Assembly (NCBI GenBank): GCA_964458565.1
Contig: CAYWJO010000001.1
Location: forward strand, 96,001-160,000
Direction: 5' to 3'
DNA: 64,000 nt
DNA from: an uncultured archaeon
GTDB lineage: Archaea; Asgardarchaeota; Thorarchaeia; Thorarchaeales; Thorarchaeaceae
The notes under the pieces are model-generated. The model made no database searches and had not been told where the DNA came from. It saw only the letters and a list, made by a program, of their open reading frames with translations. Positions 12,827 through 20,876 of the stretch are shown here, piece after piece. Each line of letters opens with the position of its first letter. Positions within the stretch are counted from its first letter, which is position 1. Position numbers and translations under genes: made by a program.

Positions 12827-13462
12827 ATGACAAAATCTGTTATCAAACTAAATAGTCTAACAAGACATATCGATATAACAGTCCTGAGTGGAAGCCTCTT
12901 CTTAATTGGAGGTATCCAATGGTTTCTGGGCATTCTTGCTGCAGAGTCATGGTATGAAGGCTACAGTAGTCGTATCGATTATGTCAGTGAACTTGGAATA
13001 GGACCAACAGCGCTCTTATACAATCTATCTGTTTTCATAATGGGAGTGTTCGTTGTAGCTGGAGCTTTCTTTCTGTATAAGTCTCAAGAGAAACAACTTC
13101 TACCAACTCTGTTGACAATATCCGGAATCGGTGCTATGGGAGTGGGAATATTTCCAGGGTACCTACAACCAATGCACAGCATTTCTACCCTGTTGGCAAT
13201 TCTATTTGGAGCGTTTGCTGCAATTGCATCATACACTCATCAGAAGAAACCTATGTCCATCATTGCGATTGTACTTGGGTCAATGTCTTTGATATTGTCA
13301 CTTGTGTTTATTCCCTACCTAGGTCTTCCAACAGGTTCTACAGAAACTTTTCTTGGAATGGCAAAGGGATCATTGGAACGTTGGGCAATCTACCCCATAC
13401 TTGCTTGGATCATAGGCTTTGGTAGTTATCTTATTGGTTCAGCTGCCAATACTGAACAGTAG
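12827..13462 (+). CDS. DUF998-family membrane protein
   Basis: GYS....VSELG, GVGIFP...H, G.LER..YP motifs; several TM helices. Confidence 0.75.
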   Translation: MTKSVIKLNSLTRHIDITVLSGSLFLIGGIQWFLGILAAESWYEGYSSRIDYVSELGIGPTALLYNLSVFIMGVFVVAGAFFLYKSQEKQLLPTLLTISGIGAMGVGIFPGYLQPMHSISTLLAILFGAFAAIASYTHQKKPMSIIAIVLGSMSLILSLVFIPYLGLPTGSTETFLGMAKGSLERWAIYPILAWIIGFGSYLIGSAANTEQ

Positions 13463-13503
13463 AATCCATAAACCGATTTTAATGAAAAATGAGAGTTAGA
13501 AGG

Positions 13504-13520
13504 GGAGTCTTGCTGACTCC
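13504..13520. terminator. Hairpin GGAGTC-N5-GACTCC between convergent genes (3' end of actin mRNA)
   Basis: 6-bp inverted repeat about 20 nt past the true actin stop codon. Confidence 0.5.
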
Positions 13521-13541
13521 ACCTTCATAAACTAGTCCTGC

Positions 13542-14711
13542 TTAGATGCACCGGTGTATAACTTCAGGTCCTGCTTCTTCGAACTCTTTCCTTGAGACCC
13601 ACATTTACCAGGCTACAACGGGAATCGCTGCAGCATTCTGGAAGGTCTTCAAGGATGCGAGTATTGAGCCACCAATCCAAACTGAGTACTGTCTCTCAGG
13701 AGGAGCGATGATTCGGACTTCAACATTCTCAGGTACAAGTTCGGTAATCTCCTTATGGAGTCGTTCCTTGAGTCCTGGGAACATGGTTGAACCACCAGAA
13801 AGTACGATGTTTGCGTATAGGTCACGTCGCAAGTCAACGTCACAGTCCTTGATAGCCTCGACAATATGCTCATCGAGTGGCTTGGTGTCAAGTCCAATAG
13901 CACTTGGGTTGAAGAACAACTCAGGTCCTGTGAACCTCTCTGCACCAACTGTGATAACGTCACCATCAGGGAGCATGTATGGCTTGTCTACACCAGCCTT
14001 GTCTGCTACTGTCCTCTCACGCTCAGGGTCGAGGGCTACGTAACAGAGTTTCTCCTTGATATCACGGACGATCTCTTTCTCTGCACCGCTTACGAATGTA
14101 TAACCTCTCTGTCTGAGAAGTCTTCGCAAGTACTCGGTGATGTCACGGCCTGCTAAGTCAATACGCTTGATTGCGTGCGTGATGGCGAAACCTTCGTACA
14201 AAGGTACGATGTGTGTGACTCCGTCACCGCTGTCAACAACCAGACCTGTGGTTCTGCCAGATGCGTACAATGATAGAACTGCCTGTGTTGCTACATATAC
14301 TGCAGGAACACCGAAATTCTCAAACATGACTGATGCCATGCGTTCTCTGTTTTCTCTAGGGTTGAATGGTGCCTCTGTTAGGAGGACTGGGTTCTCACTG
14401 GGATCTACTTTCAAGTCGTTATAGAATGTATAGCTCCAAATCTTCTCAATTGCATCCCAGTCGTCGATTACACCGTGGGTGATTGGGTAAACCAATCGAA
14501 GTACACCACGGAGGTTGATTGCTTCTTCGCCGATGTAATAGTCTCGCGTGTAGTGGTCGACGTCGGTCATGATACTCTCGTATCGTGGGTAACCGATGAG
14601 TGTTGGCCAAACACTTCGAGGCTGATCTTCGCCGGCGTATCCGTTTTTGCTGAGCCCAGTACCGTTATCAATAACGATGGGCTTAGCTCCAAGAAATTCG
14701 TCTTCAGCCAT
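13542..14711 (-). CDS. Asgard actin (Lokiactin-type), split gene: exon1 14711-13636, exon2 13605-13542; spliced product 379 aa
   Basis: [79 protein letters not shown]. The actin C-terminus [20 protein letters not shown] continues in frame after a 30-nt insert. Confidence 0.97.
13606..13635 (-). other. Putative 30-nt bulge-helix-bulge (EndA-type) intron in actin mRNA, creating an in-frame UAA in the unspliced RNA
   Basis: mRNA CCAG-AA^U-GCUGCAGCG-AUUCC-CGUUGUAGC-CUGG-UA^A: 4-bp central helix CCAG/CUGG, two 3-nt bulges, 9-bp intron hairpin, outer exon pairing AGACCU/GGGUCU. Removal restores the frame. Confidence 0.88.
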
Positions 14712-14818
14712 TTTATTTCGGTCCTCTTTTTATTCAATCAGTTCTTGTGCAAAAGTTGTGCAGCAAGACAATTGCAGCGAGTATGAGAACTCTATGCTAA
14801 GGTACAGTTCCTTCCGTT

Positions 14819-14830
14819 GCTATTTAAGGC
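14819..14830 (-). promoter_or_regulatory. Probable TATA box of actin promoter (CCTTAAATA on - strand)
   Basis: TTAAATA preceded by an A-rich BRE-like stretch, about 110 nt upstream of the ATG. Confidence 0.45.
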
Positions 14831-14860
14831 TTGTTTGGATTGTATTCGAATTTCTTAGAA

Positions 14861-14989
14861 ATATATAATACCTATGTATGTTTTATATAATAAAACCTAC
14901 CGCAAATGGCACAAAATTAACCTCAGAAGCAATTTTGGAAGGTATATTTTGTGTAATAGTATTTCATGCTATACATAGGAATTATATAT
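14861..14989. repeat. 19-bp inverted repeat pair (18/19 identity) enclosing nested palindromes
   Basis: ATATATAATACCTATGTAT (14861-14879) vs ATACATAGGAATTATATAT (14971-14989); inner GTTTTAT-ata-ATAAAAC and CACAAAAT...ATTTTGTG. Confidence 0.75.
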
Positions 14990-14998
14990 ATATAATAT

Positions 14999-15820
14999 AT
15001 GTATCTTAAGAAATTGATTGAGATGTTTTGGCGAACTACAGATGAAATGATTAGAGAGGAAATCGAATCAGTCCGAGCGAGACGTGTAATACTAGACCAA
15101 TTGGAGGGAGGTCCAAAGACAGGTAGTGAATTACGGGATAGTATAAGGAAGGATATGGCTGCACAAACTGTCAGGACAAAAGGAAAGAAGAAACTTAATC
15201 CTAAAGACTTCAAGGTAACAGATCCAAAACTCTACTTCAATACAAAGCATCTTGAAGGACAGGGGATTATTGCTAGTGCTAAGGTATCACAGCAGCGAAT
15301 ATTCGAGATGAATCCAAAGGCAATACATCCGGTGCGGAGAGTTCTAAACATCACAAGACCTATCGCACTCTTCACCTCACTATCCCGTGCAGAGGAACAG
15401 AGGTATTTTGTCAGATGGTTAGCAACATCAAAAGAGATTCAACCCAAGATGCTCTTTCTGTTTATCGATCCAACGAGTCTTCGAGGGGCATCAAAGAACT
15501 TAGATAGATACGTTCCCGACGGATCCAAGAAGAAGTGGGAGAGTGAGTGGATAGATATTGATGCAGAACAAGCGGGAGAAACTGGAACTGCAGGAGAGGG
15601 AAACATAAAGGGTACTTACCATCAAATAGAGCAAGTTCTTCTAGAAAAAATTGATGATTATACAGTAATCGTGGACCTCACTCAAGGAGTCACTACTATC
15701 CTAGCCGCACTCTCTCTCGTAGCAATTGATTATTCTCTGCAAGCCATTCATGTACTGCGTCCAAGAGGAGATGATGCAGTAGTATCATGGATATATCCGA
15801 GAGGATGGAGTGATAGATGA
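14999..15820 (+). CDS. Winged-helix + CARF-like domain putative transcriptional regulator
   Basis: N-terminal RRVILDQL..GPKTGSEL ... LYFNTKHLEGQGII wHTH; C-terminal 'VIVDLTQGVTTILAALSLVA....AIHV' resembles the CARF D-x-T-G-G motif. True start may be 15048. Confidence 0.6.
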   Translation: MYLKKLIEMFWRTTDEMIREEIESVRARRVILDQLEGGPKTGSELRDSIRKDMAAQTVRTKGKKKLNPKDFKVTDPKLYFNTKHLEGQGIIASAKVSQQRIFEMNPKAIHPVRRVLNITRPIALFTSLSRAEEQRYFVRWLATSKEIQPKMLFLFIDPTSLRGASKNLDRYVPDGSKKKWESEWIDIDAEQAGETGTAGEGNIKGTYHQIEQVLLEKIDDYTVIVDLTQGVTTILAALSLVAIDYSLQAIHVLRPRGDDAVVSWIYPRGWSDR

Positions 15821-16500
15821 GTCAAATCGCAAAGAAACTTGCTCTTGATGAAGTTGACATTGAAGACAATGTGTTCCTACTTACTGATGTTCTTAAACGA
15901 GATTTGAATGCAATCCCAAAAAAGAACTCAAGAACAATAAGACGGGTTAAAAGATGGTTAGAGCAATTGGAGTATATATCAACAGCACTCAAAGGAATAT
16001 CAGATAATCTTAAGCCAAGATTGGAGATGGAACTTGATTGTATCTTTCCAGATAGTGAATTGCTTCACATTGTGATGTTTCAGCCTAGTACCAGAAATCT
16101 CTTCATGGAGTTGCGGATATACTTCCAAAACAACGAAACACTCCCAATTCAAATCGAAGATTTTGAAAATCTGGAAGCAATAAGTGATATGGGGAGTGTT
16201 ATTGCCATGTTGGGGGATGCAGCTATATCGATTGCTATACTCCATCATCTCTGGCGTAATCGGACTTCGGATGCAGGGGAAATCACTCAGAAGAGAGCTA
16301 ATTTGGTCAGCAATGAAAACATGGCTCGATTGTGTGATAGATGGGGACTCTACAAAGCAAGGATACACTTTGATCCACCCACAAAGACAAAATCAGAAAT
16401 GGAGCACATCAAAGGTACATTGTTGGAGGCCATCTATGGAATCATCTACATCAATGAAGGTTTTGAAAAGATTATAAAAACGGTTCAACTCTTGAAGTGA
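15817..16500 (+). CDS. RNase III-domain protein without dsRBD (Mini-III-like)
   Basis: IAMLGDAAI ... GEITQKRANLVSNENMARL ... GTLLEAIYGIIY; start overlaps the upstream stop (ATGA). Confidence 0.8.
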   Translation: MSQIAKKLALDEVDIEDNVFLLTDVLKRDLNAIPKKNSRTIRRVKRWLEQLEYISTALKGISDNLKPRLEMELDCIFPDSELLHIVMFQPSTRNLFMELRIYFQNNETLPIQIEDFENLEAISDMGSVIAMLGDAAISIAILHHLWRNRTSDAGEITQKRANLVSNENMARLCDRWGLYKARIHFDPPTKTKSEMEHIKGTLLEAIYGIIYINEGFEKIIKTVQLLK

Positions 16501-20249: not shown

Positions 20250-20876
20250 TTAAACGTGCTGGTTTGAATCATTGGATTTCGTTGTAGATTTAAGTTGAGT
20301 GCCATAGTAGGAAAAACGATAGGCAGCAGTGAGAATACCAATTCCTGTGATGATCACGACTCCCAGAAAAAGTAGCAGTATAATTGAGGAGAGAGAGAGA
20401 ATGAAAAGACGCTCCGAACGGGCACCAAGACCTACATCGAGGTCAGATACACCGAGATTTTCAGCTCTTGAACGAGTGTAACTTGTGAGTAACCAGCTTG
20501 CCATACAGATTAGGACCCATAAAGAAATTGGTATCCCAAGTATAGTTGCCATTGGATATGCCATTACTATAGCAATTAGTAGAATCACCTCACACACTTT
20601 ATCCACAATAGAATCTGTGAATCCGCCAATTCTAGTACTTCGGTCAGAGAGTCTAGCAACAGCACCATCTACACCATCAAAGAATCCCACCAGGAACACA
20701 AAGATGCCGTAGACAATTTGGCTTTGAGTCATCAAAGCTAAAAATGCGAATAACGCGAAGAGAAGAGTTAGATATGTGATGGTAGTTGGTTTTACATTAC
20801 GATCTGCTAAGGGTTGTGCTACACGAAGAATTGGCCCACGAAAAATAGTTCTAAGTCTGAATTTACTTGGAGAGAT
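20250..20876 (-). CDS. CDP-alcohol phosphatidyltransferase (archaetidylinositol-phosphate synthase-like)
   Basis: DGVDGAVAR....TRIGGFTDSIVD motif, SYTRSRAE. Frame extends 47 codons upstream of the annotated start, to an ATC after the SD-like AGGAGCTGATC. Confidence 0.85.
   Translation of the reverse strand: MSPSKFRLRTIFRGPILRVAQPLADRNVKPTTITYLTLLFALFAFLALMTQSQIVYGIFVFLVGFFDGVDGAVARLSDRSTRIGGFTDSIVDKVCEVILLIAIVMAYPMATILGIPISLWVLICMASWLLTSYTRSRAENLGVSDLDVGLGARSERLFILSLSSIILLLFLGVVIITGIGILTAAYRFSYYGTQLKSTTKSNDSNQHV

Follow-up and report, generated by a model that had tools for sequence, protein, structure and literature searches.

We report here that the actin gene of an uncultured archaeon of the Thorarchaeaceae, carried on the minus strand of a 64,000-nt stretch of contig CAYWJO010000001.1 (hereafter the window, whose own coordinates are used for its genes), is interrupted by a 30-nt insert built like a tRNA intron. 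With a probability that we put at about 0.85, the 30 nt at 13606-13635 are a tRNA-type, bulge-helix-bulge (BHB) intron of the actin pre-mRNA, spliced along the path described below. Production of full-length actin would then very probably depend on the tRNA-splicing enzymes to cut the message and ligate its parts. We directly observed the insert and the conservation of its structure, the exact match of the conceptually spliced junction to the orthologues, the coding constraint on the second exon and the genes of the enzymes. From these we infer that cleavage and ligation take place, and that they do so at the predicted positions.

The interrupted actin gene and its orthologues

The actin open reading frame (ORF; 13605-14711) encodes 368 amino acids and matches the Pfam Actin profile (PF00022) with an E value of 1.5e-121, over profile positions 5-390 of 410. 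It closes on a TAA at 13607-13605, and the next codon, in the same frame, is the ATG of a short stretch (13604-13542) whose 20 codons past the stop match Actin profile positions 390-407. The in-frame stop of the insert interrupts the actin 20 codons short of the end of the gene. Exon 1 (13636-14711) runs from the ATG at 14711 to TTC CAG AA, the last two letters being the first two bases of a Lys codon, and is delimited by the ORF, the Pfam match, the BHB rule and the TFQK of the orthologues. The intron consists of 1 nt, a 9-nt arm, the 5-nt loop AUUCC, a second 9-nt arm, the 4 nt CUGG and 2 nt. Exon 2 (13542-13605) supplies the third base of the Lys codon, the 20 codons and the genuine stop, TAA at 13544-13542. 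Cuts placed by the BHB rule at the two ends of 13635-13606 remove exactly 30 nt and the stop with them, and give a 379-residue product with the junction F-Q-K-M-W. The junction TFQ-K-MWVS of the spliced window gene is the same as in 25 of 25 intron-less alleles of our alignment, and all uninterrupted orthologues examined read SLKTFQKMWVS(R/K)KEF. An earlier reading of the letters alone (the sequence-only reading) had described the stop followed in frame by the actin C-terminus, and had predicted this 30-nt excision and its 379-residue product; its coordinates were right, and the product equals the uninterrupted orthologues at the junction.

The spliced form aligns with solved actins over residues 7-377 (E value 1.7e-185). 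The interrupted gene is the sole true actin of the host genome, a metagenome-assembled genome (MAG) that is 93% complete with 5% contamination; in a search of this genome, the other match was a paralogue of 40-42% identity on contig C7. This actin-like paralogue (C7:61505-62293) aligns as two collinear pieces (query residues 10-183 and 268-358), the residues in between being uncovered.

Related genomes were searched, 61 at the outset and later 87, at class level, and the actin alignment comprises the 25 intron-less alleles and six carriers. The insert occurs at the same codon in 6 of the 87 genomes, belonging to six genera (G000, which is the host genome of the window, and G013, G023, G022, G008 and G019), and is 30 nt long in every one of them. 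In the alignment of the six sequences, 96% of the cells of the central helix are paired, with double-sided changes in two of its four pairs; the intron hairpin is likewise paired in 96% of cells, with double-sided changes in four of its nine pairs. The observed covariation was reached by none of 500 shuffles, and slid registers all drop to 36-49% paired. The outer exon helix shows zero double changes in fixed register. The most telling copies are those of G022, in which UCAA/UUGA replaces CCAG/CUGG through two double changes whose exon-side members are synonymous, of G023, in which the G-C pair closing the hairpin has become A-U, and of G019, in which the apical stem is largely different. The comparison of related actin genes proposed in the sequence-only reading bore out its expectation of conservation and covariation in the central helix and the hairpin.

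The two sides of the stop evolve very differently. Among the six carriers, exon 2 displays 148 synonymous versus 5 nonsynonymous pairwise codon differences, with 2, 1 and 16 variable sites at codon positions 1, 2 and 3, whereas the insert displays 24 synonymous versus 70 nonsynonymous differences and variable sites distributed 5/8/9, with no third-position bias. The 148:5 ratio implies that exon 2 is translated in the actin frame; this constraint rules out that the gene is decaying or wrongly assembled, and speaks against translation of the insert. At its 3' end, the intron carries an in-frame stop in each of the six carriers: four have TAA, one has TGA, and G022 has a TGA one codon upstream. 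In the latter copy the TAA of the bulge reads AAA, and it is the compensatory change from CTGG to TTGA that creates the upstream TGA. The preservation of a stop in all six carriers hints that the stop is selected.

Wider searches added no further carriers. A loose intron-plus-exon-2 pattern matched 93 places on metagenome and genome contigs, three of them in actin; as these three belong to already-known genomes, the metagenomes contributed zero extra copies. A strict BHB scan gave 2,271 raw matches, 52 of which passed the ORF-reconnection filter. It recovered the actin intron, and since the rest look like chance gene-boundary cases the scan is unusable as a census.

Public protein records hold both forms of this actin. 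Record P0121 (NCBI and JGI, on a 255-kb contig) is the window actin as the shortened, 368-residue ORF. Record P0130 (JGI/IMG, 379 residues, from a single 1,221-nt contig, in the 90% cluster of P0121) is identical at 379 of 379 positions to the conceptually spliced actin. A 1,221-nt contig with a whole gene of 1,140 nt is what one would expect of an assembled transcript, and this record is suggestive, although not proof. A third record, P0011, lies on a 122,986-nt MAG contig, is annotated as a "rod shape-determining protein" and corresponds to the spliced product of carrier G019, from which it follows that intron-less genomic alleles exist in near-identical lineages.

Splice-site fold, enzymes and architectural kinship with tRNA introns

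RNAfold assigns to the 76 nt at 13585-13660 a free energy of -32.5 kcal/mol (z = -5.1), a stability equalled by 0 of 200 dinucleotide shuffles. In the minimum-free-energy (MFE) fold, a 12-bp exon-exon helix is followed, after one unpaired U, by the 4-bp helix CCAG/CUGG, which the 3-nt bulge AAU separates from a 9-bp hairpin whose loop is AUUCC. The 4-bp helix, located between the two splice sites as in a BHB motif, pairs the exon-side CCAG (13638-13641) with the intron-side CUGG (13608-13611) and is supported by the MFE fold and by covariation. The same two lines of evidence support the intron hairpin (13612-13634), the 9-bp stem of which (GCUGCAGCG / CGUUGUAGC) includes two G.U pairs. At the 5' splice site the fold leaves a clean 3-nt bulge (AAU, 13635-13637; AAA in G008) with helices on either side, as in a BHB motif, and the cut is predicted between 13636 and 13635. 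At the 3' site the UAA serves both as the nominal 3' bulge and as the in-frame stop. It begins a run of seven unpaired nt (UAAAUGU, 13601-13607, with the cut predicted between 13606 and 13605) that faces one U, which makes the motif a relaxed, HBh'-type BHB and not a canonical one. The outer helix, which is backed by the fold and by its stability after splicing, starts 4 nt beyond the 3' bulge: GACCU pairs with GGGUC, extended by UCCUUGA/UCAAGGA. Its 5' strand (UCCUUGA, one unpaired A, GACCU) occupies 13643-13655 and its 3' strand (GGGUC followed by UCAAGGA) 13589-13600. Of the motif drawn in the sequence-only reading, the 4-bp helix, the AAU bulge and the 9-bp hairpin with its two G.U pairs stand, whereas the canonical 3-nt 3' bulge does not.

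A search of 13300-15000 against Rfam gave no family match at E values up to 1. Group I, group II and spliceosomal introns were considered and rejected: 30 nt is too short for a ribozyme core, the boundaries are AA/U...UA/A (the slash marking the cut) and there is no Rfam match. Programmed bypass of the T4 gene 60 type was rejected as well, as the sole AAU repeat lands out of frame with AUG UGG and there is no CAG landing site.

The host genome encodes two genes of the EndA family. The EndA alpha protein (187 residues) has its best PDB match in the alpha subunit of Aeropyrum pernix (1.4e-45), is also close to the catalytic alpha subunits of Sulfolobus and Pyrobaculum, and aligns through the Crenarchaea-specific loop (CSL, or L1), with a Lys at the position of A. 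pernix K44. This loop and its Lys confer cleavage of non-canonical motifs (PMC3241643). The second paralogue (212 residues) keeps the Tyr and Lys and has a Ser at the place of the catalytic His; judging from these residues, it is presumably the structural (beta-like) partner, as expected. [quoted passage not shown] RtcB is also encoded (4.9e-177), so that the gene content of the host includes both an endonuclease for relaxed motifs and an RNA ligase, as called for in the host of a BHB intron.

In the path that we propose, the CCAG ending exon 1 would pair with the CUGG near the 3' end of the insert, the 9-bp intron hairpin would stack on one side of this helix and the long exon-exon helix would hold the other. 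The two-subunit EndA, formed by the catalytic alpha and the His-less beta-like protein, would cut after the second nucleotide of the 5' bulge (AA/U) and, in the relaxed 3' loop, at the symmetric position (UA/A). RtcB would ligate the exons into UUC CAG AAA AUG UGG, for which the predicted junction in DNA sense is ...TTCCAGAA/AATGTGG..., and the spliced message would give the normal 379-residue actin. The unspliced message would instead give the 368-residue actin, terminated at the intron stop and devoid of the last 20 residues.

The same design is found in the tRNA genes of this organism. ARAGORN places introns in 22 of the 32 tRNA calls of the genome, some of which will be over-calls. The tRNA-Ala(CGC) gene on contig C69 has a 30-nt intron at 37/38, composed of 1 nt, 9 nt, the loop AUUUC, 9 nt, CGAA and 2 nt; the CGAA is paired with UUCG (positions 32-35), and CA/A and UC/U form the bulges. 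Its 37/38 boundaries fall after the second nucleotide of each bulge, which confirms in the host organism the cut rule that the sequence-only reading had applied. In tRNA-Thr(GGU), on C7, a 30-nt intron has the same 1+9+5+9+4+2 layout with the loop CUUUC. Both resemble the actin insert in this layout, in the pyrimidine-rich loop (AUUUC and CUUUC versus AUUCC), in the 4-bp helix formed by the exon and the 3' end of the intron, and in the cut positions. However, the outer helix, which is the anticodon stem in the tRNAs, abuts the 3' bulge directly there, whereas in actin it is displaced by 4 nt; furthermore, the host RNA of the actin insert is an mRNA, open to ribosomes before splicing. The idea that the tRNA machinery would splice this mRNA, which goes back to the sequence-only reading, is supported by the recurrence of the insert, its covariation, its tRNA layout and the constraint on exon 2.

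Comparable inserts were seen in two further protein genes of the host genome. The EF-1alpha gene (C45:20100-21608) is broken twice, into three collinear pieces. At the first break (~20259-20289), between profile positions 54 and 55, there is an insert of ~31 nt that forms a hairpin with the loop AUUUC and is accompanied by a 5' bulge of 3 nt, a 4-bp helix and, between the exons, a helix of 9 bp; the second break includes a run of N. In ahcY (C1:~187500-187535, ~27.5 kb past the window end) a frameshifting hairpin insert of 31 nt splits the conserved EGHPSE from VMDLSF. A scan for the loop motif (ATTYC) yielded just one addition, a hairpin at C39:~175-220 with the loop AUUUC and a 9-bp stem. 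This hairpin sits in an apparent tRNA T-arm (GGTTCGAGC ... CCCTCC) and is a candidate tRNA intron of the same design at a non-canonical position. At C45:5162-5269 ARAGORN calls a "tRNA-Stop (tta)" with a 25-nt intron, which is probably the result of a mis-placed intron boundary and not a UAA suppressor.

Points against a BHB intron and rival explanations

Several points weigh against the identification of the insert as a BHB intron. In both the MFE and the centroid folds, the 3' site is an internal loop of 7 nt (UAAAUGU) opposite one U; a single A-U pair could close the 3' bulge, which falls short of the outer helix of at least 2 bp in the canonical hBHBh' form. In G008, an A.G mismatch disrupts the central helix and a C.U mismatch the stem, and the MFE fold of this copy is devoid of the motif. 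A covariance model of the six actin introns finds the actin site alone in the host genome, the next match being at 17 bits; with no sister copy detected in this way, the kinship with the tRNA introns is architectural and not demonstrable by sequence. The evidence is at the level of DNA and of protein records, the spliced RNA being a prediction, and the source of P0130 may be an intron-less sister strain and not a transcript.

What else could the insert be? The gene could encode a split actin, in which ribosomes stop and reinitiate at the adjacent ATG, the 368-residue body and the 20-residue C-terminal peptide associating non-covalently. The stop does abut the ATG of exon 2 in five of the six carriers (TAA-ATG or TGA-ATG), and purifying selection on exon 2 would fit this scheme also. 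Yet this ATG is no new start, since it encodes the native Met of FQKMW found in every actin, the stop of G022 lies one codon ahead of it, and the scheme explains neither the tRNA-intron layout of the insert nor why compensatory changes keep the BHB shape while the insert peptide varies freely. We consider a split actin very unlikely. Readthrough, by which the stop would be read as sense to give an actin of ~390 residues with an 11-residue insertion within the FQKMW motif, is hardly credible either. It would profit from the insert being in frame and a multiple of three in length, and from the intron-bearing "tRNA-Stop(tta)" of C45, were this not probably a mis-placed intron call. However, the identity of the stop varies (TAA four times, TGA once, and once a TGA at another codon), the insert evolves without coding constraint (24 versus 70; sites 5/8/9), and the extra residues would be placed in a motif that is invariant across the family, at eukaryotic residue ~354. 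Moreover, a UAA suppressor would extend the protein, because the genuine stop at the end of actin is likewise TAA in every carrier.

Excision could also be the work of a machinery other than EndA and RtcB, such as the RNase III-domain protein encoded two genes away (15817-16500), for which the insert, a perfect hairpin, is the type of substrate cut by a double-strand RNase. Staggered cuts in the stem would nevertheless miss the exact junction, and the geometry of 4-bp helix and 3-nt bulge, like the tRNA-intron layout, points to EndA. Five relatives, some with the intron and some lacking it, have the RNase III gene in synteny with actin; as this gene adjoins actin in the intron-less genomes too (G002, G005 and G009), this linkage is unrelated to the intron. 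We grant this explanation as little credence as readthrough. That the insert is non-functional, through misassembly or decay of an actin pseudogene, has a practically negligible chance of being true. The host genome is indeed a MAG, and the sequence-only reading had itself named an assembly artefact among the outcomes that would refute it, but six independent assemblies contradict it, with a 30-nt insert at the same position and differing sequences. The same 368-residue ORF is recorded in NCBI and JGI on the 255-kb contig, exon 2 is under strong purifying selection, and the genome has no second actin. Excision of a BHB intron by EndA and RtcB remains the reading that we favor.

The actin gene has as neighbours the genes of a DUF998 membrane protein, an FMN reductase, a 273-residue protein and the RNase III-domain protein. 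The last two (14999-16500, plus strand) form a pair divergent from actin, the 273-residue protein, without Pfam match, overlapping by 4 nt the 227-residue RNase III-domain protein. About 25 nt past the actin stop codon, at 13486-13520 on the minus strand, a GGAGUC/GACUCC hairpin precedes a T-rich run and likely marks the transcript end.

Movement of the probable intron and comparison with known systems

The maximum-likelihood tree of the actin exons recovers the genera and leaves the six carriers scattered; its starred branches require three changes or more, and it pairs carrier G023 with intron-less G009 as sisters (support 100/100). After conceptual splicing the junction Lys is AAA in 6 of 6 carriers, and 23 of the 25 intron-less alleles have AAG at this codon. 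The intron-less AAA alleles, G009 and G028, also have CAA, as do carriers G022 and G008, and their AAA may be the scar of a precise intron loss leaving AA/A. For cbf5, intron loss has been proposed to proceed via a spliced-RNA copy (PMC2738675). In the conceptually spliced genes, the exon-exon helix has a median z of -2.5 in carriers versus 0.1 in intron-less alleles, and falls below -1.7 in 5 of 6 versus 0 of 25.

Carrier G023 has 95.6% identity to its sister G009 across the initial 1,036 nt. Within a patch of 61 nt that spans the intron site (-40 to +21, window ~13585-13675), G023 differs from G009 at 17 sites and from G000 at 4 (Fisher p = 7e-9 and 0.015, respectively). The patch includes a TCA/AGC serine codon switch, and the sequence is G009-like again just past the stop codon. 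Being G000-like inside and G009-like outside, this segment indicates that a short patch with the intron and the whole exon helix was exchanged between lineages. A bolder proposal, which we put forward tentatively and hold to be doubtful, is that the mini-intron is a laterally spreading element moving with ~60 nt of flanking exon that forms its own exon-exon helix, and that its in-frame stop acts as a gate on actin synthesis.

On this proposal, ribosomes arriving ahead of EndA would yield tail-less actin only, and Thorarchaeota would have to order or regulate splicing relative to translation. There would then be an archaeal precedent, on a cytoskeletal protein shared with eukaryotes, for the conflict between introns and translation invoked for the origin of the nucleus. 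Splicing of the actin message would in itself raise the question of how cells with coupled transcription and translation avoid translating an unspliced mRNA. For experiments the system is compact and testable, consisting of an RNA of 76 nt, the two EndA subunits and RtcB. Opportunities to observe intron gain, movement and loss are rare, and the presence/absence polymorphism, the putative AAA scar and the 61-nt patch provide one. There is also a consequence for annotation, as automatic procedures overlook such introns and Asgard genes are silently shortened in the records; the interrupted actin stands in the public record as a 368-residue protein.

In the unconventional HAC1/XBP1 splicing of eukaryotes (mentioned in PMC13149111), the IRE1 endonuclease cuts a small structured mRNA element at two sites and the ends are joined by RtcB-type ligation. 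What we propose for actin is alike in using a non-spliceosomal nuclease and an RtcB-type ligase, and in altering the C-terminal reading of the message. It differs in that IRE1 is a kinase-RNase that recognizes a paired stem-loop motif and is stress-regulated; for the actin intron, regulation is not indicated.

Among archaea, the sequence-only reading had rightly held BHB introns of mRNAs to be rare, with cbf5 as the classic case: the published mRNA substrates of EndA are the cbf5 intron, in a coding sequence, and the 5' untranslated region of HVO_1309 (PMC7714728). An October 2026 preprint on introns of Asgard archaea is confined to tRNA genes, and in the searchable literature we found no report of a BHB intron in actin or in any Asgard mRNA; within that literature, the present case is the first for either. 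The HVO_1309 intron of Haloferax volcanii (Schwarz et al. 2020, PMC7714728) is, like that of actin, an mRNA BHB intron, and is an EndA substrate released as a circular product. Unlike that of actin, it is 46 nt long, lies in the 5' untranslated region and interrupts no reading frame, in a euryarchaeon with a homodimeric EndA.

The cbf5 introns of Crenarchaeota (Watanabe 2002; Yoshinari 2006; Yokobori 2009, PMC2738675) come closest. They too are short introns in a coding sequence with a relaxed BHB, the class to which most of them belong (PMC2738675), and are cut by a hetero-oligomeric EndA, as the two-subunit EndA encoded by the actin host would be. Both introns have a patchy distribution, for which secondary losses were inferred in cbf5 (PMC2738675). 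However, the gene and the phylum are different, actin being a eukaryotic signature protein and its host an Asgard archaeon of the Thorarchaeota, and the actin intron is a 30-nt in-frame hairpin with a stop, near the 3' end of the gene. Splicing of cbf5 was demonstrated experimentally, whereas that of actin is deduced from sequence. The actin intron would thus be an endonuclease-type intron of an archaeal pre-mRNA, with all the features of a BHB save the canonical 3' bulge, and one for which, in contrast to cbf5, there is evidence of lateral transfer together with flanking exon sequence.

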